Shown here piece by piece: positions 5,001 through 50,747 of a stretch of DNA of 64,000 nucleotides (its first letter is position 1; the number at the start of each line of letters is the position of its first letter). The notes beneath the pieces are model-generated. The model worked only from the letters and a program-made list of their open reading frames with translations. It was not told the DNA's origin and did not search any database. A program made the translations under genes and the position numbers. This DNA comes from Patescibacteria group bacterium (GTDB taxonomy: Bacteria > Patescibacteriota > Microgenomatia > UBA10105 > UBA927), in NCBI GenBank assembly GCA_035510735.1, contig DATKGN010000013.1, forward strand, positions 596 to 64,595. Reading direction: 5' to 3'.

Positions 5001-5628
5001 CTTTACCCGATATCATCGCCCAGGGGCTCCTCAATAATATGACAATATCAAGCCACAAGGAGCTCTTTTTGACGTAATCAGCATCCATTTTAATTCTTTT
5101 GTCAAAATTGACTTCACTTCGCCCTGATACCTGCCATTGCCCGGTGATTCCCGGTTTCGCTGAAAGCACGACCTTCACGAGATCCCGCGTGTGCGGATAC
5201 TTCCGCTGCTGCTCGACAAGCTCATCGGGATAATACGGCCGCGGCCCTACAAGACTCATCTCCCCAATAAGAACGTTGAGAAGCTGAGGAATTTCATCAA
5301 TCGAATGTTTCCGTATAAATCGCCCGACATTTGTAACGCGTGGATCTTCGCGGAGTTTATAACTATTCCGCTTATATTCACCGTATAATTTTGCGAGCCG
5401 TGGATCTCTTCTCAATTTTTCATGGGCGTTTATCACCATCGACCGAAACTTAAAAAGTTTAAAAGGCTTGCCGTCTTTGCCTACACGTTGCGGCGTATCA
5501 GCAAAAATCGGTCCCAAACTGTCCCATTTGATGGCAATAGCGGTGATAATACAAAAAGGCATAAAAATAAGAGCCAGAATGAAACTGCCAAGGATATCAA
5601 TACAACGCTTCGTAAATGAATACATCAT
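4990..5628 (-). CDS. polyprenyl-phosphate phosphoglycosyltransferase (bacterial sugar transferase family, small WbaP/PglC-like initiating enzyme)
   Basis: A single re-entrant N-terminal helix is followed by the conserved sugar-transferase core KPFKLFKFRSM...DEIPQLLNVLIGEMSLVGPRP...PGITGQWQVSGR. Confidence 0.9.
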   Translation of the reverse strand: MMYSFTKRCIDILGSFILALIFMPFCIITAIAIKWDSLGPIFADTPQRVGKDGKPFKLFKFRSMVINAHEKLRRDPRLAKLYGEYKRNSYKLREDPRVTNVGRFIRKHSIDEIPQLLNVLIGEMSLVGPRPYYPDELVEQQRKYPHTRDLVKVVLSAKPGITGQWQVSGRSEVNFDKRIKMDADYVKKSSLWLDIVILLRSPWAMISGKGAV

Positions 5629-5642
5629 GGGCTTATTAGTAT

Positions 5643-6725
5643 TTAGGTAAGGTGATCGTTTTCAGTACCGGTCAGGCTTTCCACGAGAGATTTAATTTTT
5701 GATACTGAACTCTTTTTACATACCATAACGACATCATTGGTATTTACCACCAGCATATCGTCAAGATCAATGGTCACTACCAATTGGTCTGTATAATTAT
5801 ATACAAGGGAATCGCTTGTATTGTTAAGCATGACTTTGCCCTGGGTCACATTTTTATCAGCAGTCTCCTGGAGAGCCTCTTTCAGTGCTTCCCAGGCGCC
5901 GATATCGCTCCATTTCATATCCTCTGAAACAACGAGCGCATCTCCCGGATCTAGTTTTTCAAGGATTGCGTTATCGAAATGAATTTTTTCGAGTGTCGGA
6001 TATACTGAATCGAGCGTTTCATAAAATCTGGCCGTGTGAAGTTCTTCAACAATCCGTGATAACCCTTTATATAAATTCGGAGCAAACCTCTTATATCGTT
6101 CCCACAAAAAAGTCGGGGTGGTGACGAAATATCCGACATTCCATGCATGGTGACCGCTTTCAAAATAACGTTTTGCCGTGTGTTTATCTGGTTTATATTG
6201 AAAATCAATAAATGCATGGAAGGAAATACCGTTCATCGAAGCTACCTCTTTCCCGTATTCAATCCAACCTAAGTTATCACTGGCAAACCGGGGTTTTTGC
6301 GATACGAAAATAATTTTATTCGGATTTTTCTCAATAAGTGATCCCGCACTTTTCAAAATTTTCCGGAATAATACCTCTTCTTTGACCAGATGATCGCTCC
6401 AGAGAATTACCATGGGCTCCGTAGGCGATACTTTCGTCAAAATCCCTGCCATCAGCCCCACGGCAGGACCAACGTCACGCATCTCAGGCTCACCAATAAC
6501 ATGGTCAGGCGGCAATTTTGCAAGTTGCGACTGAACCATCGGCACATGCATTTTACCGGTTGCCACATAGATATCGGACCACGAAAAATCAGGCTGAATT
6601 CGGCCGGCAGCAAGCTGTAGAGTAGACTTGTCACCGATAATTTTTTCAAATTGTTTTGGCGACTTTTTACGGGAGAGAGGCCATAAACGGGTTCCCACGC
6701 CTCCGGCAAAAATAACTGCTTTCAT
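5643..6725 (-). CDS. manC: mannose-1-phosphate guanylyltransferase (GDP-mannose pyrophosphorylase, nucleotidyltransferase domain only)
   Basis: The N-terminus MKAVIFAGGVGTRLWPLSRKKSPKQF is the hallmark of ManC/CpsB-type NDP-sugar pyrophosphorylases. At 360 aa there is no C-terminal PMI cupin domain. Confidence 0.8.
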   Translation of the reverse strand: MKAVIFAGGVGTRLWPLSRKKSPKQFEKIIGDKSTLQLAAGRIQPDFSWSDIYVATGKMHVPMVQSQLAKLPPDHVIGEPEMRDVGPAVGLMAGILTKVSPTEPMVILWSDHLVKEEVLFRKILKSAGSLIEKNPNKIIFVSQKPRFASDNLGWIEYGKEVASMNGISFHAFIDFQYKPDKHTAKRYFESGHHAWNVGYFVTTPTFLWERYKRFAPNLYKGLSRIVEELHTARFYETLDSVYPTLEKIHFDNAILEKLDPGDALVVSEDMKWSDIGAWEALKEALQETADKNVTQGKVMLNNTSDSLVYNYTDQLVVTIDLDDMLVVNTNDVVMVCKKSSVSKIKSLVESLTGTENDHLT

Positions 6726-7849
6726 ATATATCTATTATATAACTCCTCAACGGTTTGTTTCATCTCACGATTAAAGCGCTCCTGACCGAATCGTTTCGCA
6801 TTCTCGCGGCAGAGGTTGTCATCATACCACTCATGATCAAATTGTTTCAAGGCGCGGGTAAGCCCATCTACCGATTGAGAGTCAAATAATAATCCTGTTT
6901 TCCCGTCTACAACAATCTCAGCCATGCCGCTTTTTTTATATGTGATAACCGGTTTTCCCATCGCCTGTGCTTCAACTGCAGCAATTCCGAAGTCTTCAAC
7001 GCCTGCAAAGACAAATGCTCGACAGTCGCGAAAATAATTAATTAACTCCCGATCCGTTACCGTTCCCACTAACTGAATTGTCGGTCCAGCTAATCTTTGA
7101 AGATGTATTTTTTCCACTCCTTCACCCACAATGACCAGCGGTAATTTCAGCTTATTACATGCTTCAACAACTAAATCAATCCGTTTATACGGAACCAACC
7201 GGGAAACAAGAAGAAAAAAACTGTGTGCCGCAGAAGAGACAGTTTTTTTCCCTTCTTGAAACATTGTAAGATCAACGGGAGGATAAATTACGCGATCAAC
7301 CGATTGATGATAATACGTTTGAATACGTTCTTTTACTATATCGGATATTGCGATATACCTGTCCGGACGGCTGCTGCCAATAATATCCCATTTGCGCAGC
7401 AATGGAGTCAACGTATTTAATGTTCGCCCGGTGACTACCCGAGGCAGACCTATATTGGGATTCTTCTCATACTCTTCTTTACCGCTCCATAGATACCGCG
7501 TCGGGGTAAGGCAATAACAAATATGGAGAGTCTGGGGCTTCGTAATAATATATTTTGCCTCAGCTGATGTAATTGAAATTACCACGTCGTATGTATCAAA
7601 TGAAAATGATTCAAATGCCATTGGCGTAAGCCACGCATAAAGCTCATGATGCCGTTTCGCAAACGGAAATCGCTGTAAAAATGAGGGCTTAACGTGAAAT
7701 ACCGATGCCCAACGGGCATGCTGTTTATCATACACAGCGGTGAATAACGGCGCATCGGGCCAGATTGCATGCATTGCCAACAGAACCCGTTCCGCCCCCC
7801 CAATTTTATTGATTCGGTCATATACAAATGCAATTTTTTTCGGTTTCAT
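6722..7849 (-). CDS. glycosyltransferase, GT-B fold (GT4 family)
   Basis: The C-terminal domain motif is EDFGIAAVEAQAMGKPVI (the E-x7-E region). The N-domain MKPKKIAFVYDRINKIGGAERV is GT4-typical. Confidence 0.8.
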   Translation of the reverse strand: MKPKKIAFVYDRINKIGGAERVLLAMHAIWPDAPLFTAVYDKQHARWASVFHVKPSFLQRFPFAKRHHELYAWLTPMAFESFSFDTYDVVISITSAEAKYIITKPQTLHICYCLTPTRYLWSGKEEYEKNPNIGLPRVVTGRTLNTLTPLLRKWDIIGSSRPDRYIAISDIVKERIQTYYHQSVDRVIYPPVDLTMFQEGKKTVSSAAHSFFLLVSRLVPYKRIDLVVEACNKLKLPLVIVGEGVEKIHLQRLAGPTIQLVGTVTDRELINYFRDCRAFVFAGVEDFGIAAVEAQAMGKPVITYKKSGMAEIVVDGKTGLLFDSQSVDGLTRALKQFDHEWYDDNLCRENAKRFGQERFNREMKQTVEELYNRYI

Positions 7850-8964
7850 AAAGTGGTTCCGACCCGCAAGTAGATATCGTATGTTTTGACAGCCAAATCA
7901 TGCCAGTTGTAACGAAGAAGAAATGGTTTAATCTTATTACTCATCTCACGACGCGTTGAATGTTCCGAAATCCGAACGAGGGCATCTTTCAATAATCCTG
8001 GCTTCCTGGTATCAACGAATGTTGCAAAATCTTCTAATATTTCCCGAAAAATTGGAATATCCGATACGATAACAGGGCAACCCGCTGCGAGCGCTTCAAG
8101 TGCCGGTAAACCGAATCCTTCCATCCGTGACGGGAACAGTAGTGCAATCGCATTGGCGTATAATGCATGAAGCTCTACGTCTCCGATATCATGTAAAAAC
8201 AGGACATGATCTTGAATTTCCGTCGCATACACAACTCCCGCAAGCCTCCGATAAAAATAATCATCAGGACCGACAAAGACAAGAAGTGCAGATTTTTTTA
8301 CCGCTTTCTGGTACTCCCGATACGCTTCGAGCATTAATTCAATATTTTTATGCGGATAGACATTACCGACATACAGAAAATAGTCCCCCGATATTGATGA
8401 TTTTGCTGTTGGAATATTTATTTTTTTCAAAAAATTCGGGTCAATGCCTTCATACGTTACAATAATTTTATCCTGATTAATTCCGAAATGTTTTATAATA
8501 TCGTCTTTCACAGTTTTTGAAACGGTAATGATTTTCCGCGCATTCATTATTCCCAGTCCAAGAACTATCCGGTATCCAAAACGACGGATTTTATAAAAAA
8601 AATACGGCAGCGTTGTTGCTTTACCTGTATCAGTCTGAAGAATGGTGAGGTCGTGAATTGTAATAATATACTTTCCGAAATATAAGATGGGCGCATTAAA
8701 ATATGGTATATGCACCAAATCAAGATGCTCTTTTGTAAACAACCACGGCATTACTATTTGCTCACGTACACTATGCCACGAAACATCGGCTAACCTTTTT
8801 GTCCACCGATCATTTGGAGGCGAAAACGTATGGTAATCCCTTTTTCGGAAAAAAAGGATGTACTGATTAACGGAATCAATATCGCCAAGCTCCCGTATAA
8901 GATTACGGATATACCGCCCGACACCCGTTTCGCCGATAAGACGCGCATCAATACCGATTTTCAT
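7846..8964 (-). CDS. glycosyltransferase, GT-B fold (GT4 family)
   Basis: The N-terminus is MKIGIDARLIGETGVGRYIRNL and the C-terminal motif is MEGFGLPALEALAAGCPVIVSD. Confidence 0.8.
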   Translation of the reverse strand: MKIGIDARLIGETGVGRYIRNLIRELGDIDSVNQYILFFRKRDYHTFSPPNDRWTKRLADVSWHSVREQIVMPWLFTKEHLDLVHIPYFNAPILYFGKYIITIHDLTILQTDTGKATTLPYFFYKIRRFGYRIVLGLGIMNARKIITVSKTVKDDIIKHFGINQDKIIVTYEGIDPNFLKKINIPTAKSSISGDYFLYVGNVYPHKNIELMLEAYREYQKAVKKSALLVFVGPDDYFYRRLAGVVYATEIQDHVLFLHDIGDVELHALYANAIALLFPSRMEGFGLPALEALAAGCPVIVSDIPIFREILEDFATFVDTRKPGLLKDALVRISEHSTRREMSNKIKPFLLRYNWHDLAVKTYDIYLRVGTTL

Positions 8965-8965
8965 A

Positions 8966-9844
8966 TTAGAGAGACCACTGTTTCAATAAAAACAGGCGGA
9001 ATACGTAAAAACTATTGACCAAAAAGCTTATAATCGGCCCATACTCTCGGGCATAATGTTTTTTGAAAAACAGCCAGTTATATTCGTGAAAATATATTTC
9101 CGTTGCCACACGGCGCTGCCGCAGAATATTGGCTCTTCCACTCTGTTTCTTTTTATGAAGAATGGAAACCAGAGGATAATACCAAATCTGCCATCCCGCC
9201 TGTTTTATCCTATATGCCCAATCTATATCCTCCGCATACATAAAATAATCTTCATCAAGTACGCCGACAGCGGCAACAACCTCGCGGCGCACCATAAAAA
9301 ATGCCCCGGAAATACAATCAACTTCGTGAGGTATGCGTAGATCTTTATATCCCTGGTGATATTCTCCAAACCACTGTGTCCTCGGAAACAATTTTTCGAG
9401 CTTTGCGATGTAGGAGAATGCGACCCATGGCGTCGGAAACCCGCGGTGACACGCCGGATCCATTGACCCGTCCGGAAGGACTAACTTACATGTAGCGGCT
9501 CCGGCCTTTGGATGCCCATCCATGAATGTGATCATTGATGTGAATGTGTTGACTGCAACTTCGGTATCCGAGTTAAGAAGAAGAATATATCGCCCTTTAG
9601 ACCCTTTTATCCCGGGATTATTTCCTGCCGCAAAGCCGATATTTTTCCCGTTTTCAATGAATGTCACCTCCGGAAATTCTTTTTTCACCATGGTCTGCGA
9701 TCCGTCAGACGAGGCATTATCACAGACAATAACCTCAATCGTGTATCCGCCAAGTTTTGTATTCCGAATGCTTGAGAGACATGCCCGAGTTACATCAACA
9801 GTATTAAAATTAAGAATAATAATGGAAAGATCAACGCGTTTCAT
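8966..9844 (-). CDS. glycosyltransferase family 2 (GT-A fold)
   Basis: Motifs include LSIIILNFNTVDVTRACLSSI...VIVCDNASSDGS and a DxD-like YAEDIDW. The start was moved to the internal ATG at 9844 (MKRVDLS), which reduces the overlap with the downstream GT4 to 14 nt. The track ORF extends to 9922. Confidence 0.75.
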   Translation of the reverse strand: MKRVDLSIIILNFNTVDVTRACLSSIRNTKLGGYTIEVIVCDNASSDGSQTMVKKEFPEVTFIENGKNIGFAAGNNPGIKGSKGRYILLLNSDTEVAVNTFTSMITFMDGHPKAGAATCKLVLPDGSMDPACHRGFPTPWVAFSYIAKLEKLFPRTQWFGEYHQGYKDLRIPHEVDCISGAFFMVRREVVAAVGVLDEDYFMYAEDIDWAYRIKQAGWQIWYYPLVSILHKKKQSGRANILRQRRVATEIYFHEYNWLFFKKHYAREYGPIISFLVNSFYVFRLFLLKQWSL

Positions 9845-11015
9845 ATGATTGTTTCCACACGGTATCAAGCACCTTGGCAATTTGTTCCCAACTGTACTTT
9901 TTTTCCACCAACGCTCGTGCATTCATCGTCATTCTAACCGTTTCTTTAGGATACATAAAAATATACTCAACCGCCTTCGTAAACTCCTCTTTCGTCTCGA
10001 CCTGACAATAATGCGTCCCGGAGAGCACATCAAGTCCCGTACTCCCGGCTTTCGTTGTCACAACGGCCGTTCCGCTTGCCATCGCCTCAAGAATCTTAAA
10101 CTTGCTCCCGCCTGCTATACCCATAGGCGCCACAAGAACGTCAGACTCCCGATAAATCCTTCGGATATCATCGATATCCTCACGGATATGCATATGATCT
10201 CCGGTAAACTGGCGAAGTGAACTCGGAAAACCTTTTCCGATGATTGTCAGAGTTACACTGGGCATTCGCGCACGAATGCCGGGCCAAATATCTCTCACCA
10301 GCGTTCGAACAGCTTCAACGTTCGGCGCCCACGCAAAATTACCAACGAATACTAATTTCGCGTTCTGTTTATCCCATGTATGCTTGTGATAAGAAAATGA
10401 ATGTATATCCACCCCGTTTGCAACAACAGCCGTTTTTTTCTTCGTTATGTTTGAAATAATTGCGGCATCGTTATCCGATACTGCAATAACGGATGACGCT
10501 TTCTTCCACACCTTCTCTTCCCAACGGCGGATTTTCCCGGCATCGGAAGAAAGGATTGGGCGTGCAAAAAAGAACGGATATGATTTGGCAAATTCACTAT
10601 ACACAGCATATTCAATATTATGTTCTGAAACGACCATGGGTATTGACCCTCTCTCAGGCACTGACGGATATACATAAAATGGCTCAAGATGGATGAGGTC
10701 ATATTTCTTCTTCGACAATTCATTCTGTATACACTCCTTCATGAGCGCATTGTCATACGTGGTTAAAAGTAACGGGTATGACCCGAACATTTTCGCGAGA
10801 TACGAGGCCTGCATAGCCCTACCGCGATAGATCATGTGCACGTCTGACAAAAACCCTAACGTATTTATGTAAGCGCGCTCCTTTTCATCTCGGATAAAAG
10901 AACAAAGGGTGATATCGTGATTCTTTGCGAGAATCTTGAGAAGATTATACATTCGCACCTGGCCCCCAGAATAGAGCGGGTACGGAAGTACAGCGCTAAT
11001 AAATAATATGTTCAT
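9831..11015 (-). CDS. glycosyltransferase, GT-B fold (GT4 family)
   Basis: The N-terminus MNILFISAVLPYPLYSGGQVRMYNLLK and the C-domain ...GIAGGSKFKILEAMASGTAVV are GT4-typical. Confidence 0.8.
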   Translation of the reverse strand: MNILFISAVLPYPLYSGGQVRMYNLLKILAKNHDITLCSFIRDEKERAYINTLGFLSDVHMIYRGRAMQASYLAKMFGSYPLLLTTYDNALMKECIQNELSKKKYDLIHLEPFYVYPSVPERGSIPMVVSEHNIEYAVYSEFAKSYPFFFARPILSSDAGKIRRWEEKVWKKASSVIAVSDNDAAIISNITKKKTAVVANGVDIHSFSYHKHTWDKQNAKLVFVGNFAWAPNVEAVRTLVRDIWPGIRARMPSVTLTIIGKGFPSSLRQFTGDHMHIREDIDDIRRIYRESDVLVAPMGIAGGSKFKILEAMASGTAVVTTKAGSTGLDVLSGTHYCQVETKEEFTKAVEYIFMYPKETVRMTMNARALVEKKYSWEQIAKVLDTVWKQSYETR

Positions 11016-12448
11016 TTCTTTCTCGTGAGATCAATAATTGCATATTTATCGTTCCTGACGAGCACGGTGTACATGTTTGCAAGATCACGCGTCTCCAAAT
11101 CATTATTCGTCGGCGAAACCGTTACATAATATCCCGCCCCCATTGCAATTTTCTTTGCAATATCAAATCCTTCGGGCCATCCCTGCCTATTGATCTGATA
11201 AAGAAATGTCGTATCACCGTTATACGGTGCAATCACTTTGGCATTTTTGGGAATAAGAGCATCGGCAGCTTTTCCCGCTTCAACAATCTCCGGTCTGTTG
11301 ATCCAAAAATAGGTTCTTATCGTATACCATGAAAAGGCCCAAAGGAACAAAAAACAAACAATCGCGAGTGCGTATGAGCCGAATTTATTAAACCCCTCAA
11401 CTCCCCTCATAAATGTGTAAAATCCCTTTGCTGTAAACCAAACGATAACCGGAATAATAAGCGCCTGATAATAATCATGCTGAACGTTTCCCCCGGCAAA
11501 AATAATCAGATATGCTAATGCACCCGCGAGCCACAACAGAGAAAACCACGCTTCTCCTTTTTTCATTTTGGTGACGAGTCCTATGCCAAAGGGTATAAGA
11601 CCCCAATACCCTAAAATAAGATCGGCAAGCCGCTGGGAAAACAACCAGTAGAACCAGGCGCCCTTAAAGCGCACCCCATTATTATTGTATAGCCAGTCTG
11701 ACACCGGAATCCCTTCCGGGAACTGCAATATCCAATGCCGCCACCAAAGAAGCGGAACGGCGATGATAACGCAGTATATAAGACCATATGCAACGCCCTT
11801 AAGAAACGTCGTATTGCGGAATACGAGATAAGCCGCCGGAAATAAAATGAAAATCTCCATGGGCCGCACGAGAAGGGATATGGCCCCGAAAATACCGGCA
11901 ACGATAACCCAGGCCCATGACCAGTTTGAGTTTCCCCTTTTCCAAAGCACCGTCAGACTCACAAGTGCGCAAAATGTCGCAAGAGGGTCAGGTAAAATCG
12001 CGCGACCATAATAGATGCTAAAGGGCAGCACCGCGTAAATGAACGCGCCCAAGATACCCGCAAACGGATTTACGATTTCACTCAGGAGAAATCCGAAAAG
12101 CAACACACTAGCGCCCGTTGCAACAATGCTGAGCCCCCGAAGGACCTCCTCGATGGTCACGTGCGGAATTAATTTAAACGACTCAACGCCGATAAGTTGA
12201 TAGAGAGGAAATTCCACCATCCTCCACCCCATCGGATTATCCTTACCGGACTGAATGTTAGAAAGATCGTCGTATCGCGGATGAAGCGGATCTATACCGA
12301 ATTTAAGAAAATTTCTTGCAACCGCTGCAGTATCGGATTGCCGCCAACTGTGCCAGTCGGCGATTGGCCAGTTAATATGGTAAAAACGTACACCAATACT
12401 GAGTAAACTTATAATAACAAGACCGACGATAAATAATTTTCTCTTCAT
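11012..12448 (-). CDS. GT-C fold membrane glycosyltransferase, ArnT/PMT-like (GT39/GT83-like)
   Basis: The protein is 478 aa with about 11 predicted TM helices. The first loop contains PIADWHSWRQSDTAAVARNF, which is the position of the acidic motif in polyprenyl-phosphate-sugar dependent GT-C enzymes. Confidence 0.6.
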   Translation of the reverse strand: MKRKLFIVGLVIISLLSIGVRFYHINWPIADWHSWRQSDTAAVARNFLKFGIDPLHPRYDDLSNIQSGKDNPMGWRMVEFPLYQLIGVESFKLIPHVTIEEVLRGLSIVATGASVLLFGFLLSEIVNPFAGILGAFIYAVLPFSIYYGRAILPDPLATFCALVSLTVLWKRGNSNWSWAWVIVAGIFGAISLLVRPMEIFILFPAAYLVFRNTTFLKGVAYGLIYCVIIAVPLLWWRHWILQFPEGIPVSDWLYNNNGVRFKGAWFYWLFSQRLADLILGYWGLIPFGIGLVTKMKKGEAWFSLLWLAGALAYLIIFAGGNVQHDYYQALIIPVIVWFTAKGFYTFMRGVEGFNKFGSYALAIVCFLFLWAFSWYTIRTYFWINRPEIVEAGKAADALIPKNAKVIAPYNGDTTFLYQINRQGWPEGFDIAKKIAMGAGYYVTVSPTNNDLETRDLANMYTVLVRNDKYAIIDLTRKK

Positions 12449-15400
12449 TTCTTTTTCGTTGTATCCGTAGGGATAACCACCTCAGCACGAATTCCTCTTT
12501 TTAGCTGGTAATTTTCAAAGATAAACACCTCCCGGTCCCCCTTGTGGATGGGATACTCAAAAGCTTCTTCCAGGGTCCGCGCCGGAATTATCCGATATGG
12601 ACTTTCTCTGTACATATGCCAGATCGCATCATTAAGCCCCGTCGGAAATATCCAGGCGCTCCCATAGCGGATGGGCGTATTGATGAAGAAAAATGTTTTG
12701 TAATCTTTGGGTGGAAACGTTTCTTCTTTGATAACCGCAAGCGCCTGCTGGGCTGTGTTACTTGCTTTTATCCAATCATCACCCACCCTGAGCACTTCAC
12801 GCACATTCCAAGAAGTAAGGAGTACAAACAACAGAAGAAGAATGACGGACACCCATAAGCGTTTTGTGTTGTGAAGTATTTGAGAGCACGCAAGAACAAC
12901 AGCAATAATCAAAAATATTGATGGAATATACGTGTACCGATCCGCCATGCCCCCGAGTGGCGCATACGCCGCGAGCGATATAAAAAATGCGGCAATCCAA
13001 ACCAGCGACCCCCGAAACATGCGTAACTTTTCCCGTAATGTAACGACAAAGAATACTACGATGGCTCCGATAACAGCAACGGCAACTGATATTTCTTTAA
13101 CGTATTGACGAAGCATTGATCGCACCGTCATCCAGTAGTCAACTACTTTCGGTCCGCCGAATGATGCGATTGCGTACCCGACCGAATTAACAACAGAATT
13201 AATAAACACCGTGCTCGTTTTGTAGCCGTAGTCCCCCTGTGGCGCAAGCGCCCCAGCCGAGTGACGCATAAATAGATACAATGGGATGAGGAGCAGGCCT
13301 CCCCATAACCATTTATTTTTTTGCTCACGGGATAGTCCAATTATAAGAACTATAACGGGAGCGACAACTAATCCGTCATATGAGAGCATAGCAAAAAATG
13401 TCGTGATCACCATTACGGCTCCGATAATAAATTTTGGCACACGATGGAAATAACCGAATGACTCTTCAAAAAAATAGACGGCCATTGTCAAAAACATTGC
13501 AGACAGCATGCTACTTTGTCCTGATATCCAATAGACGTTTTCGTGATGACTGGCAAGCACAGCGAACAGAAGTGCACCGCACCACGCGACAAATCCGTGA
13601 ACTTTCCTAAGAAGCAAAATCCGATACACAAAAAATGTTGTACAGAGAAGAAGAAAAATTGACATCAAATGATATGCAAATGGTTCAAGCCAAAAAATAG
13701 AAAATACTGAAAAATACCAAAGTTTCGGAATCGGGCGGTAGAAAAATCCCTGAGACTGGGTAAAGTATGTCATGATAGATTTGACATTGCTCTGTGCTGC
13801 CCACCGAAGCCAGGTAAAATCATCGCCCAGAAAATACAACCCAAACGTCTTGTGCCAAACGAAGACGACAGCAAGGAAGAGATAAAAAACGTAGGCTGCG
13901 GGGTGGGTAAAAATACGTTTTAAAAGCCCTATATAGTCGAGCGTAATGGTAGTCCCCCGAGCAAGGAGCGCTATTGCTATTCCTAAAAGCAACCACAAAA
14001 TATATGCAACCTTTGACGCTTCAAAAACGTCAATAAGTACAGCATTGAGAATCAGACCAGCGATTCCGGCAAATAACCCGATTACCAATGAACGTTCAAC
14101 AGGTGATAAGGTATTTTTATACTTAAAAAACAAATAAAATGCTGCCGCAAATATACCTAAAAATGAGATTGCACCAAGGAGACCAGTCTCCCCGAGCATT
14201 CTATGGTAATCGCCGTCAGCGGCTACAGAAAGTGTCGAATACCCACTTCCGAGTAGAATATTCCGCTTAAACGCCTCAATTGCTAATGGCCATTCCCCCT
14301 GAATACGCGTCGTTATTGAAATATCATACACAAGTGCCTTCTGGATAAGAAAACTTCCGGAGATCGTTGCGACGCTGCCGGGAGCTCCTTTCACGTCAAC
14401 GCTTTTATAATACGCAACGGTTTTCACTGCGCTGTTGTTTTGTTGTTGCGATGGAAGGTTTATAAACTCACTCCCCCGAGGGAGTGTGTTCGTCGACGGT
14501 GATTCGATCGGCTGTAATGTAGCTTCCTGACCCTGTAACTTATCAAGTGTTCCGATAGGTTTACCTGTCGACAGATCAACGACAACATTACTAACACTGA
14601 ACGTTTTATAAAACCGCTCCGAAGCACCGCTCGTAAAATTAAGTGTCAGAATGCTCAGAACGATCATTGGGATGATATAAATAGGCTTTTTTTGCCAAAT
14701 AAGCATAATGCTCATCACAATGAGATACACGCCGAACGAAACACGCGAAGCCGTAAAGAGAAGCATGATTAACCCTAAAAATGTGAGAATGAAAAAAAAT
14801 ATTTTTTGCCACCACCGCGTAAACGCGAATATCAAACTTGCCATGATGGGGATGGTCAGCACCATGTACGCGGCAAGGTCATAATGTCCTGCGAATGTTG
14901 ATGGAAACCGCGCATTTGAAGGAAGCCGCAATGGTAGCCCTTTCGCGAATTGCTCGTTCATCGTCATAAACGCGGGAAATCCCAAAAATTTCTGTCCAAA
15001 CCCATACAAAACGACCGCCAAATACGTTCCTCCCAAAACATAAAGAACTGGGAGCACAGACTGCTTTTTCCGAAATGCCTCAAACGCAAGGAAGAAAACC
15101 ACCATATACTCTATACGCCGTACGTAATGAAGCACAGCAAGGTGAGGGAAAAATATACCCGCAAAATGCGGAAAAATAAAAACGAGTGCATTGACAAGAG
15201 ATATAAACCCTATGCCCCAGTACGCAAAAATAGGCGTCTGTAAAGGCGAACTGCTTAATCGTTTCTGACGCCAAAATTCTATTGCGAGTACAATTGCGGA
15301 TGCAAGGATGACAAAATCATCAAACCGGATATACACCCATGTCTGCGTCACATCAATAAGCGGCAATTTTGGGTACAGCGGAATAAACGCCAGTAAAAAT

Positions 15401-15453
15401 AGCGTCAGAGTTGCAAGAAAATTATCTTTACACCATCCGAATAGCTTCTGCAT
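12445..15453 (-). CDS. large polytopic membrane protein: N-terminal O-antigen ligase/polymerase-like (Wzy_C/WaaL) domain fused to a C-terminal GT-C-like membrane domain
   Basis: The 1002-aa product has more than 20 TM segments. The Wzy_C/WaaL-type motif H-x-x-L-x-E-x-G-x-x-G is present as DYHRMLGETGLLGAISFLG in the middle. The C-terminal half restarts with new TM helices and an LGDDFTW acidic loop motif. Confidence 0.55.
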   Translation of the reverse strand: MQKLFGWCKDNFLATLTLFLLAFIPLYPKLPLIDVTQTWVYIRFDDFVILASAIVLAIEFWRQKRLSSSPLQTPIFAYWGIGFISLVNALVFIFPHFAGIFFPHLAVLHYVRRIEYMVVFFLAFEAFRKKQSVLPVLYVLGGTYLAVVLYGFGQKFLGFPAFMTMNEQFAKGLPLRLPSNARFPSTFAGHYDLAAYMVLTIPIMASLIFAFTRWWQKIFFFILTFLGLIMLLFTASRVSFGVYLIVMSIMLIWQKKPIYIIPMIVLSILTLNFTSGASERFYKTFSVSNVVVDLSTGKPIGTLDKLQGQEATLQPIESPSTNTLPRGSEFINLPSQQQNNSAVKTVAYYKSVDVKGAPGSVATISGSFLIQKALVYDISITTRIQGEWPLAIEAFKRNILLGSGYSTLSVAADGDYHRMLGETGLLGAISFLGIFAAAFYLFFKYKNTLSPVERSLVIGLFAGIAGLILNAVLIDVFEASKVAYILWLLLGIAIALLARGTTITLDYIGLLKRIFTHPAAYVFYLFLAVVFVWHKTFGLYFLGDDFTWLRWAAQSNVKSIMTYFTQSQGFFYRPIPKLWYFSVFSIFWLEPFAYHLMSIFLLLCTTFFVYRILLLRKVHGFVAWCGALLFAVLASHHENVYWISGQSSMLSAMFLTMAVYFFEESFGYFHRVPKFIIGAVMVITTFFAMLSYDGLVVAPVIVLIIGLSREQKNKWLWGGLLLIPLYLFMRHSAGALAPQGDYGYKTSTVFINSVVNSVGYAIASFGGPKVVDYWMTVRSMLRQYVKEISVAVAVIGAIVVFFVVTLREKLRMFRGSLVWIAAFFISLAAYAPLGGMADRYTYIPSIFLIIAVVLACSQILHNTKRLWVSVILLLLFVLLTSWNVREVLRVGDDWIKASNTAQQALAVIKEETFPPKDYKTFFFINTPIRYGSAWIFPTGLNDAIWHMYRESPYRIIPARTLEEAFEYPIHKGDREVFIFENYQLKRGIRAEVVIPTDTTKKK

Positions 15454-16294
15454 ATGTTGTTTTTAAATAATCACTCCCGATAACATATCCTATTGCTATC
15501 GAAATGAGCGCCTTTAACCGCAGCAATAAGCGTAACACGTCAAGCGCCGCTCGAGAATAGTGTTTTTTATACAAATAAAGAAATCCCCGGTAAATATTAA
15601 GAACCGGTCCGGTCCGTTTATTCGTTGAGCTTGCAGCACCTAAATGAATAATTTTGGATACTGGATAAAAATATGTTGTATATCCGTGGCGTCTGGCTCT
15701 CATCAATAGATCAATCTCCTCCATATACATAAATATTCCTTCATCGAATAAGAGATCGTCGAAAAACGACGTTTTTGCCGCCACGATGCAGGCTCCTGAT
15801 ATCCAATCAACCTGCCGGGTTTCATCAGGCGACCAGCGCGTCAGGCCGTTTCTATCGCCTCTCATAAAAAGTGCAGCAAAAACAACGGGCAGTGAAAAAA
15901 ACGGGCCGCATGATGTCTGTGGGGTACGGTCGGGGTTCAATAATTTAGGACCGACGAATGATTTCGGATGGGTGAGAGCAAAAGAATATATATTGTCAAT
16001 AGCATCTGGCAGTACAACCGTGTCCGAATTAAGAAGCATAATATACGTACCTTTAGCCCGTTTCATCCCCTGATTATTTGCGCGTCCGAATCCGACGTTC
16101 TCGGCGTTAAAAATCGTAACAACATGCGGATATTTCTTTACCAGCATCTCCCGTGTGCCGTCTGTGGATATGTTATCCACAACAATAATTTCCATCTTTA
16201 ACCGGCTTGTATACATTGTCCGATAAATAGATGAAAGGCAGTCATCGACTAATTGCTTTGTATTAAAACTAACGATAATGATAGAGAGATCCAT
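15428..16294 (-). CDS. glycosyltransferase family 2 (GT-A fold)
   Basis: Motifs include MDLSIIIVSFNTKQLVDDCLSSI, VVDNISTDGT, a DxD-like MEEIDLL and YIMLLNSDT. Confidence 0.8.
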   Translation of the reverse strand: MDLSIIIVSFNTKQLVDDCLSSIYRTMYTSRLKMEIIVVDNISTDGTREMLVKKYPHVVTIFNAENVGFGRANNQGMKRAKGTYIMLLNSDTVVLPDAIDNIYSFALTHPKSFVGPKLLNPDRTPQTSCGPFFSLPVVFAALFMRGDRNGLTRWSPDETRQVDWISGACIVAAKTSFFDDLLFDEGIFMYMEEIDLLMRARRHGYTTYFYPVSKIIHLGAASSTNKRTGPVLNIYRGFLYLYKKHYSRAALDVLRLLLRLKALISIAIGYVIGSDYLKTTYAEAIRMV

Positions 16295-16303
16295 AATGAT
16301 GAA

Positions 16304-16903
16304 TTATTGAAACAAGCGGGAGAACTTAAGCGTATACCGAAGATCTTTTGATCGGTCTTTTATAAATTTTGCCGGAACTCCCCCGACAACTGTAAAAGGC
16401 GCAACATCATGGGTGACAACGGCTCCTGATGCGACAACCGCGCCGCGGCCAATAGTGACACCGGGTAAAATAGTCACACGGGTTCCGATAACCACGTAAT
16501 CTTCTATAACAACCGGTCCTGCGATTTCGGAAAAATTGGAATCATCGACATCATGTTCCATAGTAAAAATTCTTACTTCACCGGCAATCGAAACATTATT
16601 GCCGATTTTGAGTGGCCGATTTTTTGGGTTAACAAAGTCCTTTATATAAGACGCAAATTTATACTCATGGTCCCGCCATATGCGCTTGAACCGACCGTCC
16701 AGAAATGCATCATTTCCGATTATCGTGTTATGACCGATCTCAATGCCCGAAGGCAGATTAAATCTGGCACGCCAATGGACCGATGAATCTTTTCCGATTT
16801 TTACACGGAAAAGGTGTCGGTATAAAAATAGCCTCACGGTATGGCTGGGAATATACCCAGTCAATGTTGCCAAATAAACCCAAAAATCAATCATCCATCT
16901 CAT
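16304..16903 (-). CDS. sugar O-acetyltransferase, left-handed beta-helix (hexapeptide-repeat) family
   Basis: The C-terminal hexapeptide repeats read IGNNVSIAGEVRI...VVIEDYVVIGTRVTILPGVTIGRGAVVASGAVVTHDVAPFTVVGGVPAKFI. The start was set to the internal ATG at 16903 (MRWMIDFW), which forms an ATGA overlap with the upstream GT4 stop. The track ORF extends to 16963. Confidence 0.7.
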   Translation of the reverse strand: MRWMIDFWVYLATLTGYIPSHTVRLFLYRHLFRVKIGKDSSVHWRARFNLPSGIEIGHNTIIGNDAFLDGRFKRIWRDHEYKFASYIKDFVNPKNRPLKIGNNVSIAGEVRIFTMEHDVDDSNFSEIAGPVVIEDYVVIGTRVTILPGVTIGRGAVVASGAVVTHDVAPFTVVGGVPAKFIKDRSKDLRYTLKFSRLFQ

Positions 16904-18054
16904 ATATCCTTCGCGCCGGCTTTGGTTAATATATCGAGTGTTTGCTTCGCCGCTTTCTCCCATGTAAACTGTTTAACACGTACTAGACCGCGTTGAATTC
17001 GAGTCTTCCCTTGTATCAAATTTCGCTGACGAACAGCTGAAAGAAGGCCGTTTGCGATGCTGTCAACATCGGTAGGCACAACGTAAATACCAGCAGAATC
17101 TGCGATCTCAGGCAGGCTTGAAACGTTACTGATCACGACGGGACATTTATACGCCATAGCCTCAAGAACCGGCAACCCGAATCCCTCATAAAGACTTGGC
17201 AGTGCAAAACAGAGAGCCTGACGATAAAATGAAGGCAAATCGCTATCCGGCACGAAATCCAAAAATTTCACCTTATCTACCACTCCGAACTTCGAAGGCG
17301 CGCTCAATATTTGCTCATACAGCCACCCTTTTTTACCGATTATCACCAACTGTACTTCTCCGAATTTCTGTTTATTTTTTTGGAGAAATTTTGAAAAAGC
17401 CTCAATGAGGCGCACATAATTCTTCCGGGGTTGAAGCGTTCCGACGGATAATATGAAGTGCTTTGCAATCTTATACTGCTCAAGGCTGTTTTCCTGCTTT
17501 ATCGGAGTGCCTGTTGTGGTCTTTTGCATAGAAAATCCTGGGAACGTAACAAATACCTTTTCTTTGCCAATACCGTAACGTTTTATTATATCATTTTTAC
17601 TGAATTGGCTTATGGTACAGACGGCACTGGCATGCGCCAACCCATATTTGGTCCAATTTGTTAATTGATAGAGGTCCCGTTTCCGGAAAAGTTCAGGAAA
17701 ATACAGATAGGAAAGATCCATAACCGCCATCACCCTCGGTATTCTGGTGAATCTGGGGATATAGTGAGTAGGTGAAAAAACCACTTGAGCCTCCGGCTTA
17801 TCTTTTTTTAATGCGAGAGGAAGCCCCACGAACGTCCACAATTTTTGGGGTCCGCGGACGTAATAATGCCACCAGGTAGTCTCCTTCGGCATATCCGTCC
17901 TCGGTCTTGTTGGTACATAGACACGGACTTCTACACGGTGCGCATTATCGTGTGATAAAAGAACGTATAAACTCACGAGTATTTCATATGCATACCGGCC
18001 TATTCCAACGCGTGAGCCGACGTTTGCCTCATACCCGTCGATAGCGATAATCAT
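16900..18054 (-). CDS. glycosyltransferase, GT-B fold (GT4 family)
   Basis: The N-terminus is MIIAIDGYEANVGSRVGIGRYAYEIL and the C-terminal motif is EGFGLPVLEAMAYKCPVVISNV. Confidence 0.8.
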   Translation of the reverse strand: MIIAIDGYEANVGSRVGIGRYAYEILVSLYVLLSHDNAHRVEVRVYVPTRPRTDMPKETTWWHYYVRGPQKLWTFVGLPLALKKDKPEAQVVFSPTHYIPRFTRIPRVMAVMDLSYLYFPELFRKRDLYQLTNWTKYGLAHASAVCTISQFSKNDIIKRYGIGKEKVFVTFPGFSMQKTTTGTPIKQENSLEQYKIAKHFILSVGTLQPRKNYVRLIEAFSKFLQKNKQKFGEVQLVIIGKKGWLYEQILSAPSKFGVVDKVKFLDFVPDSDLPSFYRQALCFALPSLYEGFGLPVLEAMAYKCPVVISNVSSLPEIADSAGIYVVPTDVDSIANGLLSAVRQRNLIQGKTRIQRGLVRVKQFTWEKAAKQTLDILTKAGAKDI

Positions 18055-18647
18055 AATAAATTCCCGCTAAATCCGGGATAGACGACATGTAAACGGTCTT
18101 TTGCTATACCGAGAAGCCCCATTACATCTTTTTTCGTCGATTCACTGTCACAAAATATCGTCTGACACTCTTTTTTAACCCATGCGAGTCTTCTTTTCTG
18201 TGTCGCGACAATATTTGGGGAAATCAATAATCGCTTCGTGGTAAATTCTGTCTGCTCATGTGTTTCAATAGGATACTTAAAAGCGATAAGATCGTGAATC
18301 GTCGTAATCCCCCGTGCGCCAGCAAGAGGCGGCTGAGTCCAGTCGCTGCTCCAGAAAATATCGACAGGTCCTATAAATGATTCAATCGGGATAATATGCA
18401 GCCTATTCCATAAGAGATCAAGAAACGTCGGCGGCATGAAAAAAAGTTTTAACGTCACACGACGCGGATCCGCGTGGAGAGACTGATGATATGAACGAAG
18501 TACACGACGCCTACGCAGCGACGAGCCAAAAAGAACGTATTCGTTTTCTGTATCCTTCGAAATAATCTCCCGGACAATCGATCGGACGTATGTCGCGACC
18601 CCCGTTCCTTCATACACAATTTGGCTTATATCTATGCCGATACGCAT
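18051..18647 (-). CDS. GT4-type N-terminal (acceptor-binding) domain only; stand-alone half glycosyltransferase or truncated remnant
   Basis: The 198-aa product begins MRIGIDISQIVYEGTGVATYVRSIVREI, a GT4 N-domain. It ends at ...RLHVVYPGFSGNLL, where the C-terminal catalytic domain would normally begin. No E-x7-E domain is present. It overlaps the next full-length GT4 by 4 nt. Confidence 0.45.
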   Translation of the reverse strand: MRIGIDISQIVYEGTGVATYVRSIVREIISKDTENEYVLFGSSLRRRRVLRSYHQSLHADPRRVTLKLFFMPPTFLDLLWNRLHIIPIESFIGPVDIFWSSDWTQPPLAGARGITTIHDLIAFKYPIETHEQTEFTTKRLLISPNIVATQKRRLAWVKKECQTIFCDSESTKKDVMGLLGIAKDRLHVVYPGFSGNLL

Positions 18648-18685
18648 ACCTGTAGTATAGCGTATTTGGAGGCTCGGAAGAAATA

Positions 18686-19666
18686 TTATGCATATCCGTT
18701 GGGGTGCATTTTATACCACGCCCATGCGGATTCAATGATCGATTCAAGCGACGCATGTGACGGCTTCCAGCCAAGAAGTTTTCCCGCTTTTCGGTTATCT
18801 GCAAATATAGCATCCGGATCTCCCCAACGGCGCTCTTTGTAGTGGATATCCATCTTTTTACCCGTCACCTTCTCTATTGTGTGCAATATCTCAAGATTCG
18901 AATATCCTTTTCCGACACCCAAATTAACCGTCAATGATACATTATTTTTAATAATAAATTGTGCTGCCTTCAGATGCGCGTCCGCTAAATCCAATACATG
19001 AATATAATCCCGCACACACGTTCCGTCCGGAGTTTTATAATCCTCCCCAAATACGAAAAATGGTTTCCCCGATGCCGCAGATGCGAGTGCAACCGGAATA
19101 ATGTGCGTCTCAACGGGATGAGCTTCTCCTAATGTACCATCAGAGAGAGCTCCGCATGCATTAAAATACCGTAGGTTTGCATGGTGGATACCGTAGATTT
19201 TTTCGTACCAATCGAGAATCTGTTCAAAATTCCGCTTAGAAGCACCATATACGGACGCAGGCGCTATCGGCGACTCTTCGGTAACCGGCAGACTCTCCGG
19301 AAATCCATATACCGCACAGGTTGAAGAAAAAATAATCGTTTTACACCCGTTGCGCCGCATCGCATCAAGGAGATTTAATCCACCGTCAATATTGTTGTGA
19401 AAATACTTAAATGGCTTCTGCATCGACTCCCCCGCCAGAGCAAGCGCCGCAAAATGAATTACCGCGTCAAAGTGATCATTTTCTAACACACGATCAATGG
19501 CATCTTTCGACGTGAGATCTCCGATGACTAATTTTGCGTCACCCACCGCTTCTTTATGGCCTGTACTCATATTGTCAAATATTTGAGTCTCGTGAGACTT
19601 TGACCTCAATAACCAATTAGTAATGGATCCGATGTACCCGGCGCCGCCGGTGATTAAAAACTTCAT
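18686..19666 (-). CDS. galE: UDP-glucose 4-epimerase
   Basis: Motifs include MKFLITGGAGYIGS, the catalytic YGASK (YxxxK) and the overall SDR-extended layout. The 326-aa length fits GalE. Confidence 0.85.
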   Translation of the reverse strand: MKFLITGGAGYIGSITNWLLRSKSHETQIFDNMSTGHKEAVGDAKLVIGDLTSKDAIDRVLENDHFDAVIHFAALALAGESMQKPFKYFHNNIDGGLNLLDAMRRNGCKTIIFSSTCAVYGFPESLPVTEESPIAPASVYGASKRNFEQILDWYEKIYGIHHANLRYFNACGALSDGTLGEAHPVETHIIPVALASAASGKPFFVFGEDYKTPDGTCVRDYIHVLDLADAHLKAAQFIIKNNVSLTVNLGVGKGYSNLEILHTIEKVTGKKMDIHYKERRWGDPDAIFADNRKAGKLLGWKPSHASLESIIESAWAWYKMHPNGYA

Positions 19667-50746: not shown

Positions 50747-50747
50747 A

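Follow-up and report, generated by a model that had tools for sequence, protein, structure and literature searches.

In the O-antigen ligase WaaL (Wzy_C, PF04932; GT121; structure 7TPG), which has 12 transmembrane (TM) helices, TM9 and TM10 are separated by a long outer loop. Ligases carry two arginines and a histidine, while in the related polymerases and SEDS proteins, which also have conserved arginine residues, an aspartate or glutamate takes the place of the histidine at the acceptor-activating site (PMC10920833). In Brucella and Mesorhizobium the O-antigen ligase WadA is itself bimodular, its GT121 part being fused to a GT25 enzyme, and this was read as coupled action (PMC10920833). GT-CA enzymes of two- and three-component periplasmic glycosylation systems add sugars onto glycans linked to undecaprenyl diphosphate (Und-PP) outside the membrane (PMC11127046), and this class includes the ArnT/PMT/GtrC type (GT83, GT39; Pfam families PMT_2, PMT and GtrII). 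The PglB, STT3 and AglB enzymes (GT66) are distinguished by a WWDYG motif and a C-terminal domain of more than 200 aa.

The window considered here, a stretch of 64,000 nucleotides analysed as a whole, contains an ATG-started reading frame of 1002 aa in which a Wzy_C-superfamily module is genuinely fused, in one covalent chain, to a second GT-C-fold module (Table 1). A first-pass annotation had placed the frame at the same position with no strand given; it lies on the minus strand, and both motifs quoted there, DYHRMLGETGLLGAISFLG (aa 415-433) and LGDDFTW, are present. A homologue search returned 1848 matches, and nearly all of the best 120 of these, examined for size and identity, were about 940-1010 aa long, shared 47-73% identity and came from independent assemblies. 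The fusion was found in at least 578 species-level genomes and is spread over hundreds of genomes of Microgenomates, within the candidate phyla radiation (CPR). Across the relatives, the N half and the C half vary in step in their identity to the query (r=0.92). The first-pass annotation knew of no precedent, which does not hold for ligase-glycosyltransferase fusions in general, as WadA likewise joins a Wzy_C-type module covalently to a further glycosyltransferase from its own pathway. However, the partner in WadA is a globular, cytoplasmic, nucleotide-sugar enzyme of the GT-A type, whereas here it is a polytopic GT-C module of 485 aa with an invariant DD motif predicted to face outward, like the active site of the N module. 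No O-antigen ligase-type module fused to a second GT-C module was found in the literature searched, and the combination of a Wzy_C-type and an ArnT/PMT/PglB-like GT-C module in one protein appears to be undescribed so far.

Table 1. Features of the fusion gene and its operon, with positions in the window.
Feature	Positions	Strand	Remark
Bimodular polytopic membrane glycosyltransferase, complete ORF	12445..15453	-	1002 aa, ATG start, with stop codon
N module, aa 1-497, Wzy_C/O-antigen-ligase superfamily (GT-CB-like), 12 TM	13963..15453	-	HMM, relatives, fold
Large outer-face loop, aa 286-415, TM9-TM10 of N module	14209..14598	-	model and conservation
Motif DGDYHRMLGETGLLG, aa 413-427	14173..14217	-	ortholog alignment
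Cytoplasmic linker between modules, aa 498-517	13903..13962	-	sequence variable
C module, aa 518-1002, GT-C fold (GT-CA-like), outside Pfam classes, distant PMT_2 kin	12448..13902	-	fold and profile
LGDDFTW, aa 542-548	13810..13830	-	right after first TM helix of C module
Soluble beta-rich C-terminal domain, aa 913-1002, about 90 aa	12448..12717	-	models and conservation
GT2 glycosyltransferase, 288 aa, upstream	15428..16294	-	always before fusion or split pair
PMT_2-family GT-C protein, 478 aa, downstream	11012..12448	-	conserved neighbour
Glycan-assembly operon, conserved and syntenic	2967..19666	-	neighbour annotation

For the operon as a whole, the gene order is epimerase, GT4 N-domain protein, GT4, hexapeptide acyltransferase, GT2, fusion, PMT_2, GT4, GT2, GT4, GT4, sugar-1-phosphate nucleotidyltransferase, Bac_transf phosphoglycosyltransferase and DUF4012, and it is identical in the related loci L001 (60% identity) and L002 (49%). 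The start of the fusion gene is overlapped by 26 nt by the upstream GT2 gene, whose product is similar to GT2s of the common chain-extending kind (TuaG, HpsE and EpsD, for example), and its stop overlaps the start of the downstream PMT_2-family gene by 4 nt. In contrast to ArnT/PMT/GtrC-type systems, a GtrB/ArnC/DPMS-like polyprenyl-phosphate sugar synthase was recognised neither in the operon nor in the window, nor was a GtrA-like flippase partner of the C module. The locus also differs from those of Wzy-type polymerases: a chain-length regulator was not recognised, and the conserved operon yielded no flippase, the sole Wzx-like candidate being located 34 kb away and scoring slightly below threshold. 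No gene for an acceptor protein was identified in the operon.

For the N module, the AlphaFold2 model has 12 TM helices and both termini are predicted to be cytoplasmic, with loop charges that obey the positive-inside rule and inner loops rich in K/R. The direct Wzy_C match expected from the first-pass annotation was not obtained with the whole protein at E<=1, and the N half scanned alone reached 16.6 bits (E=0.007), below the Pfam cut-off of 31.7 bits; yet Wzy_C was matched by 23 of 36 relatives (best E 1.6e-7), and IctB gave a weak match to the N module. In Foldseek searches, WaaL (7tpg_B, TMt 0.59) and the SEDS protein FtsW were matched only by the full-length model, which includes the N half, and a profile search of the PDB with the protein found no relative by sequence. 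Because of the family-level matches and the WaaL fold similarity, the N module is assigned as a divergent Wzy_C domain, having its superfamily and GT-CB fold class in common with the Wzy-type polymerases (clan GT-C1, GT125-129) and SEDS proteins (GT119).

The likeness to WaaL extends to an arginine where a TM helix reaches the outer face (R237, compared with 'TQTR215' in E. coli), a second arginine in the TM9-TM10 loop (R383) and an x-x-x-E-x-G-x-x-G motif going into TM10, the equivalence of R237, R383 and H417 to WaaL residues being taken from the register of the motif and from a single hhalign alignment that was not significant. The loop itself comprises 130 aa, with pLDDT <50 over most of its length and with D377, R383, W388, G402, G404 and D413 invariant; residue-conservation counts here and below refer to 78 species-level orthologs. 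R237 is also invariant (78/78). Within DGDYHRMLGETGLLG, whose register agrees with 'H338-N-E-I-I-E-A-G' of E. coli WaaL, D413 and R418 are conserved in 78/78, E422, G424 and G427 in 77/78, and Y416 in 74/78. Position 417, however, is occupied by L in 47 orthologs, H in 10, F in 9, M in 7 and V in 3, and by histidine in 19 of 36 close relatives; thus the quoted motif is present, but it is not a canonical ligase active site. A canonical O-antigen ligase therefore seems unlikely from the residue pattern, and a polymerase-like enzyme or a non-LPS transferase appears to fit better, as the ligase-type histidine is variable while the acidic D413 is invariant and E422 nearly so, which fits the Asp/Glu-for-His pattern of the polymerases.

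In a further difference from WaaL, LPS synthesis is not known from the lineage of the host, a member of the CPR. It is possible, if rather doubtful, that the N module acts as a ligase or O-oligosaccharyltransferase of the WaaL/PglL type and passes the completed glycan en bloc to its last acceptor, which in the absence of LPS would be an S-layer protein, a pilin or a lipid. The GT-C module joined to it would then decorate the product or prime this acceptor, for instance by PMT-like O-glycosylation. The Wzy_C family matches and WaaL-like fold are consistent with this, as are the PMT-like relatives of the C module, the coupled action proposed for WadA, and the GT121 ligase-like proteins with unknown acceptors that CAZy lists in Gram-positive bacteria (PMC10920833), but the histidine that defines ligases and O-oligosaccharyltransferases is mostly replaced by Leu, the protein falls under the Wzy_C threshold, and the operon offers no identified acceptor.

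For the C module, the model (pLDDT 89, pTM 0.88) has about 13 helices after the linker followed by the beta-rich tail, close to the 12 or so TM helices and soluble tail of the first-pass annotation. Despite the lack of any Pfam match in the C half, including PMT_2 and DUF2723 as then suggested, the module is recognised as GT-C by predicted fold and transitive homology only. The top 26 Foldseek matches in the PDB were all GT-C enzymes (TM 0.30-0.51), among them PglB, STT3, AglB, ArnT, PMT and ALG12, with a probability of 1.0 for the top 25 and 0.72 for AftA, and the C-module model matched GT-C enzymes alone. A profile search gave 42,848 matches, complete stand-alone proteins among them; of 41 such relatives, four match PMT_2, one PMT and one GtrII, and three stand-alone paralogs are present within the window. 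GT-CA enzymes such as PMT, ArnT and PglB have an acidic motif in the first outer loop, and the position of LGDDFTW agrees with it, D544, D545 and W548 being invariant (78/78). In the C-terminal domain the W934..G939 motif is invariant, D942 is conserved in 77/78 and W945 in 75/78. The fold, the DD motif, the helix number and the small soluble domain are all shared with the ArnT/PMT/GtrC type, from which the module differs by its fusion to a Wzy_C module and by the missing Pfam match.

In the fold comparison of the C module, PglB, STT3 and AglB score best (E 7.5e-5 to 9e-4, TMq 0.39-0.49), and oligosaccharyltransferases use PP-linked donors. Together with the failure to find a lipid-P-monosaccharide synthase at the locus, and with lineages in which the GT-C module alone keeps the operon slot, this would accord with an N module that polymerises the repeat unit and a C module, PglB/AglB-like in role and representing a new GT-C family without a WWDYG domain, that moves the Und-PP-linked polymer en bloc to the final acceptor. 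Such a division of labour is unlikely, however, as a WWDYG-type motif and sequence similarity to these enzymes are absent, the C-terminal domain is short, ArnT, PMT and ALG12 have similar E-values and TM-scores, and the sequence-level relatives in PMT_2, PMT and GtrII are users of lipid-P-monosaccharides. The loss of the canonical histidine in the N module, and the absence of a match to any curated family model for the C module, might also suggest that one module is catalytically dead and only a scaffold or substrate-binding partner, but this is highly improbable given that R237, R383, D413 and R418 in the former and D544, D545, R573, E638, R839 and Y840 in the latter are invariant at ortholog identities of 34-60%, the pattern expected of active sites.

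The K/R-containing linker of 20 aa lies where related contigs carry two genes instead of one. In L005 and L094 the Wzy_C and GT-C parts are neighbouring overlapping genes in the identical operon slot, with A-runs at the N/C junction, so a frameshift error is possible there, and the seemingly split L007 is in reality a fusion with an in-frame TAG. The corresponding operon in L092 and L093 has the GT-C module only, and the two modules are therefore not strictly interdependent. A merger of two neighbouring genes by assembly or frameshift artefact, which the split pairs might suggest and for which the first-pass annotation singled out 13.9-14.2 kb, is effectively refuted, as the frame is open across 13903-13962, is uninterrupted in 78 of the 80 best species-level loci (stop-free segment of at least 950 aa), and remains unbroken at about 1000 aa in hundreds of independent assemblies that include contigs of about 1 Mb and a record titled complete chromosome.

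The preferred reading, with a rough probability of 0.55 for the scheme as a whole, is a bimodular glycosyltransferase of a Microgenomates (Patescibacteria/CPR) bacterium, acting on the outside of the cytoplasmic membrane in the final stages of a conserved envelope-glycan pathway. The cytoplasmic enzymes of the operon would assemble an oligosaccharide on Und-PP, which would then be flipped outward and bound by the N module via R237 and R383 for en-bloc transfer, probably as a Wzy-type polymerase or non-LPS transferase rather than in a WaaL-like manner. The C module, like ArnT, PMT and GtrC, would draw on a polyprenyl-phosphate-linked sugar and attach a residue either to this glycan or to its acceptor, with the DD motif as its putative catalytic or metal-binding site. 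The short cytoplasmic linker would keep both outer-face active sites together, so that product could be handed between the modules. Counted against this scheme are the missed Wzy_C cut-off, the poorly modelled N-module loop, the basis of the WaaL residue equivalences, the lack of a PDB relative by sequence, the unrecognised donor-sugar synthase, the oligosaccharyltransferases as top fold matches, the distant Wzx-like candidate, the lone GT-C module of L092 and L093, and the A-runs at split junctions. The bimodular enzyme is genuine, widespread and uncharacterised, with both of its parts being known kinds of enzyme; its precise chemistry is what we infer, and it is plausible that, as the first-pass annotation proposed, the fusion would couple en-bloc transfer to further periplasmic glycosylation.

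Homology of the N-terminal module (residues 1-497) of the 1002-residue fusion protein to the Wzy_C superfamily is seen mainly at the level of the family. Wzy_C was absent from a Pfam scan of the whole protein (no match at E<=1), and the N half scanned alone gave a sub-threshold match to Wzy_C (PF04932) at residues 223-423 (E=0.007; 16.6 bits vs a cut-off of 31.7), whereas 23 of the 36 aligned relatives matched the model at E<=0.01 (best 1.6e-7). These family-level matches therefore support the superfamily homology proposed by the first-pass annotation but not formal Wzy_C membership of this sequence, which stays below the gathering score. The NCBIfam match to IctB is weak (23.7 bits vs a cut-off of 366), and identity as a 'bicarbonate transporter' was dropped on that score. 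The full-length AlphaFold2 model (pLDDT 77.5, pTM 0.75) predicts 12 transmembrane (TM) helices for the N module, with a 130-aa, poorly modelled outer-face loop between TM9 and TM10, and twelve helices with a long TM9-TM10 loop are the layout of WaaL (PMC10920833). Foldseek with the full-length model matched WaaL (7tpg_B; E=0.03, probability 1.0, TMt 0.59) and also FtsW; since both were absent when the C half was searched alone, these matches would belong to the N module, which in the model thus resembles WaaL in helix number, in the long outer loop near the C terminus and in fold. The short 'inside' loops of this module are rich in K/R and the short 'outside' loops have none, which places both of its ends and the linker (residues 498-517) in the cytoplasm.

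In GT121 ligases two arginines bind Und-PP and a histidine activates the acceptor, and polymerases related to GT121 as well as SEDS proteins have Asp or Glu where the ligase has His (PMC10920833). The arginine pair that binds the Und-PP diphosphate is R191/R265 in CmWaaL and R215/R288 in EcWaaL, and the acceptor-activating histidine is H313 in CmWaaL; in the E. coli K-12 WaaL sequence the ligase histidine is H338, in the motif 'H338-N-E-I-I-E-A-G'. Residues R237, R383, D413 and R418 of the fusion are invariant in 78/78 species-level orthologs, and E422 is kept in 77/78. R237 ends a 'TASR' motif, compared with 'TQTR215' of E. coli WaaL, and R383 lies in 'R..GEW...G.G'; an hhalign comparison of the family with E. 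coli WaaL paired TASR237 with TQTR215, at a non-significant probability of 0.25%. Judged from motif register, R237, R383 and H417 may be the WaaL-equivalent residues, H417 being in register with H338. Position 417 is variable, however, with His in 19 of the 36 close relatives and in only 10/78 species-level orthologs (Leu in 47/78), unlike the conserved acceptor-activating His of WaaL and GT121, and the stretch DYHRMLGETGLLGAISFLG (residues 415-433), read as a WaaL/Wzy_C motif by the first-pass annotation, therefore counts as a superfamily motif lacking the ligase His. D413 and E422 lie within 5 residues of H417 and would be candidates, by sequence position, for the acid that Wzy-type polymerases (CAZy clan GT-C1) combine with Arg at the His position. 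A ligase or O-OTase N module working with a decorating GT-C module would fit the WaaL-like layout and fold, but the scarcity of the ligase His makes it a rather unlikely reading. No LPS genes were seen within the 64-kb window, and CPR bacteria are not known to make LPS.

For the C module (residues 518-1002) the first-pass annotation had suggested a GT-C-like membrane module, to be checked for PMT_2/DUF2723-type domains. The C half alone has no Pfam match at E<=10, and PMT_2, PMT or related models are also unmatched in the 36 relatives; among stand-alone C-module relatives, 4/41 reach PMT_2 (best 7e-10), 1/41 PMT and 1/41 GtrII, so that kinship to PMT_2 would be transitive only. Searching PDB sequences with family profiles, one for the full protein and one for the C half, returned nothing beyond noise (for example an MBP fusion or PLL/PHL lectin repeats, E>1). 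Modelled alone from 19 sequences (pLDDT 89, pTM 0.88), the C module is predicted to adopt a GT-C fold: its 26 best PDB fold matches are all GT-C proteins (PglB, STT3, AglB, ALG12, ALG9, ArnT, Pmt1/2/4, DPY19 and AftA), with probability 1.0 for the top 25, 0.72 for AftA and TMq of 0.30-0.49, and EmbA ranks 29th. At E<=1e-3 an exhaustive search with the C-half profile matched 42,848 representatives, of which 116 remained at E<=1e-30; among the matches are ~27 clusters of fusions ~1000 aa long as well as complete stand-alone proteins ~470-540 aa in length. The C module defines a GT-C family of thousands of relatives that Pfam leaves unclassified. Three stand-alone paralogs are encoded in the window (see table). 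Four other 'stand-alone' relatives (P0155, P0159, P0165 and P0174) were set aside, since their position at contig edges makes them uninformative.

Eight residues of this module (D544, D545, W548, R573, P574, E638, R839 and Y840) are invariant in 78/78 orthologs. The D544-D545 pair, within the LGDDFTW string also quoted by the first-pass annotation and found at residues 542-548, lies 6 residues past the module's first TM helix; by its charge the linker preceding this helix is cytoplasmic, and the DD loop is predicted to be outside. The pair is kept in stand-alone relatives too (D59/D60 of relative A3). GT-CA enzymes (PMT, ArnT, PglB) carry a catalytic acidic motif in the first outer loop after TM1, and D544-D545 occupy the corresponding place when compared with the PMT_2/PMT/ArnT type (GT39, GT83). 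The oligosaccharyltransferases (OSTs) PglB, STT3 and AglB (GT66), in contrast, have WWDYG in a large C-terminal outer-face domain; neither WWDYG nor WWD was found in the fusion sequence, the C-terminal soluble domain of the C module is ~90 aa, and PDB OST sequences were not matched. The C module is therefore not a member of the OST family, and a polymerase N module paired with an OST-like attaching C module is improbable, even with PglB, STT3 and AglB among the fold matches. The C terminus also contains an invariant motif, GxAWIFPTGLxDAxWH (residues 931-952), weakly like the blade repeat GRxEVFxxGxDxALWH of the Photorhabdus PLL/PHL beta-propeller lectins; at E>1 this likeness may be due to chance.

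Judged by residue conservation, both modules are apparently conserved and catalytically competent, and it is very improbable that one of them is dead. Forms with a single module also occur. At two related loci (L092 and L093) the same operon carries the GT-C module alone, in a protein found on 7 contigs, and a six-frame search revealed no remnant of the N module there; L004 has a stand-alone GT-C copy in a different context.

The fusion is also real as a covalent unit, as the first-pass annotation had described it. A search of 5.8 billion proteins returned 1848 matches, the best 120 of which are almost all ~940-1010 aa long, with 47-73% identity and 88-100% query coverage (most 97-100%), and trace to numerous independent assemblies that carry the labels Microgenomates, Gottesmanbacteria or Patescibacteria. 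Among species-representative genomes at least 578 relatives were detected; the best 80 of these loci align at 34-60% identity across residues about 1-990 and have record titles naming Gottesman-, Woese-, Levy- and Roizmanbacteria. Contigs of ~1 Mb are among them, as is one record whose title gives a complete chromosome. Stop-free segments of >=950 aa are present in 78 of these 80, and the identities of the N and C halves to the query co-vary among relatives (r=0.92). A merger of two genes by misassembly or frameshift at 13.9-14.2 kb, which the first-pass annotation wished to see checked, is for practical purposes excluded by these open frames, and we regard its chance as negligible. Many fusion loci, including L010-L013, L015 and L017, are in TPA MAGs titled 'uncultured Gammaproteobacteria bacterium', one of them on a 0.95-Mb contig; these titles are probably placeholders or wrong taxonomic labels.

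Split forms were found as well. On a 27-kb contig (L094) the same operon contains two genes, a complete Wzy_C gene for 507 aa and behind it a GT-C gene for 498 aa, the latter with its own ATG 20 nt before the upstream stop in another frame, and L005 has a similar arrangement. Both junctions have A5-A6 runs, and the downstream ATG is in an A-rich run overlapping the upstream stop (GATGAAAAATAA; ATGAGAAAAAAGCAAAGTAG), so these split forms may reflect sequencing frameshifts; the runs are compatible with translational coupling or homopolymer sequencing error, and conceivably with frameshifting. L007 was rejected as a split gene pair: it has a single frame (LIDVF*ASKVA) with an in-frame TAG exactly at the codon for the invariant Glu478, and gene callers therefore make two 'genes' of it. 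This TAG may stem from a sequencing error, mark a pseudogene or be a recoded stop.

Features of the window and of related loci, with positions in the window unless a locus is named
Feature	Position	Strand	Remark
Fusion ORF, 1002 codons	12445-15453	minus	ATG start
C-terminal motif GxAWIFPTGLxDAxWH	12595-12660	minus	
PMT_2 match	11012-12448		
PMT_2 match and C-module stand-alone paralog	38971-40662		
PMT_2 match	46269-47600		
PMT_2 match	60384-62030		
PMT_2 match	62027-63727		
PTPS_related match	58731-60377		
C-module stand-alone paralog	32757-34493		
C-module stand-alone paralog	34499-36238		
Large membrane protein, no family match	20910-22778		
Large membrane protein, no family match	22781-24721		
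Large membrane protein, no family match	25736-28006		
Large membrane protein, no family match	53564-55192		
Wzx-like candidate	49487-50746		
Wzx-like candidate and 408-aa protein	49487-52657	minus	
Glyco_transf_4-only ORF	18051-18647	minus	window
Glyco_transf_4-only ORF	L001:4805-5353		related locus
Glyco_transf_4-only ORF	L002:4961-5497		related locus
Glyco_transf_4-only ORF	L094:843-1412		related locus
DUF4012 protein, 677 aa	2967-5000	minus	single N-terminal hydrophobic segment
Glycan-assembly supercluster	2967-63727	almost all minus	
Gene junction of split form	L005:2975-2995		
Gene junction of split form	L094:5995-6020		
In-frame TAG	L007:2980-3015		

The fusion gene shares 26 nt at its start with the upstream GT2 gene, and its stop shares 4 nt with the start of the downstream PMT_2-family gene; it is therefore part of a tightly packed operon. 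The genes run as epimerases, GT4 N-domain protein, GT4, hexapeptide acyltransferase, GT2, fusion, PMT_2, GT4, GT2, GT4, GT4, sugar-1-P nucleotidyltransferase, Bac_transf phosphoglycosyltransferase and DUF4012, and together they make up the set of an Und-PP-linked heteroglycan pathway. This order of ~15 genes is identical in the three loci compared, namely the window and orthologs 60% and 49% identical, and the fusion protein by itself occurs, with identities as low as 34%, in 578 or more species-level genomes. Conservation of this degree, which hypervariable O-antigen and capsule loci do not show, suggests that the operon makes a core envelope polymer. A Wzx flippase is absent from the conserved operon and a Wzz-like protein was not recognised; the sole Wzx-like candidate (27.8 bits vs a cut-off of 28.2 for Polysacc_synt) lies 34 kb from the fusion. 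No convincing polyprenyl-phosphate sugar synthase of the GtrB/ArnC/Ppm1 type was found within the 64-kb window: the upstream GT2 resembles chain-extending GT2s and matches ArnC and DPMS at only ~21-22 bits, and two other GT2s with C-terminal TM helices had no clear match.

Almost the entire window forms one co-directional glycan-assembly supercluster with many GT4/GT2 genes, methyltransferases, epimerases and 17 polytopic membrane proteins, including at least 8 further GT-C-like proteins. The Wzx-like candidate has a near neighbour of 408 aa, unannotated and with 8 hydrophobic peaks. This protein may be a Wzy-type polymerase in its own right, in which case a second Wzx/Wzy-type pathway, independent of the first, would be encoded in the window. 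A conserved ORF of ~180-200 aa that holds nothing but the GT4 N-terminal (Glyco_transf_4) domain is always found before one of the operon's full-length GT4 genes; it may be a separately encoded half-GT or accessory subunit. The DUF4012 gene adjoins the Bac_transf phosphoglycosyltransferase gene at the operon end in 3/3 loci compared.

In the mechanism that we favour, with moderate confidence, the N module would handle the flipped Und-PP-glycan, more in the manner of a polymerase than of WaaL, the C module would take a sugar linked to lipid phosphate and add it either to that glycan or to the glycan's acceptor, and fusion would force the two active sites into proximity. A bolder reading, to which we give a probability of roughly one in five, makes the fusion the central synthase, at the outer face, of a housekeeping polymer found in the envelope throughout the Microgenomates class. 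A GT-CB polymerase would here be permanently coupled to a GT-CA transferase, and the latter would either branch the chain or, as an OST-like enzyme without the WWDYG domain, link it to its final acceptor. In public records the protein is a 'hypothetical protein', in occasional cases an 'O-antigen ligase', and no description of a Wzy_C plus GT-C fusion was found in the open-access literature. The closest precedent on record is WadA, in which a GT121 ligase is joined to a soluble GT25 (PMC10920833). The domain appended in WadA is globular, whereas that of the fusion is polytopic, and neither Glyco_transf_25 nor another soluble GT domain was detected by Pfam in the fusion or its 36 relatives. The joining of GT-CB-type and GT-CA-type membrane modules is thus a new combination of known parts.

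Much of bacterial diversity belongs to the CPR/Patescibacteria, and their cell-envelope chemistry is essentially unknown. A natural covalent Wzy_C plus GT-CA fusion is 'Rosetta-stone' evidence that both enzyme classes cooperate physically at the outer face, which is hard to show with the separate proteins of model bacteria, and the fusion is a compact cryo-EM target for a polymerase-transferase complex. Its interest is moderate and lies chiefly in giving access to the envelope biology of CPR bacteria and in being a natural case that speaks for the two enzyme classes acting as one unit. If the synthase reading is true, the fusion would be a single-polypeptide 'polymerise-and-attach/decorate' machine without described counterpart, and would provide a first handle on the composition of CPR cell walls.
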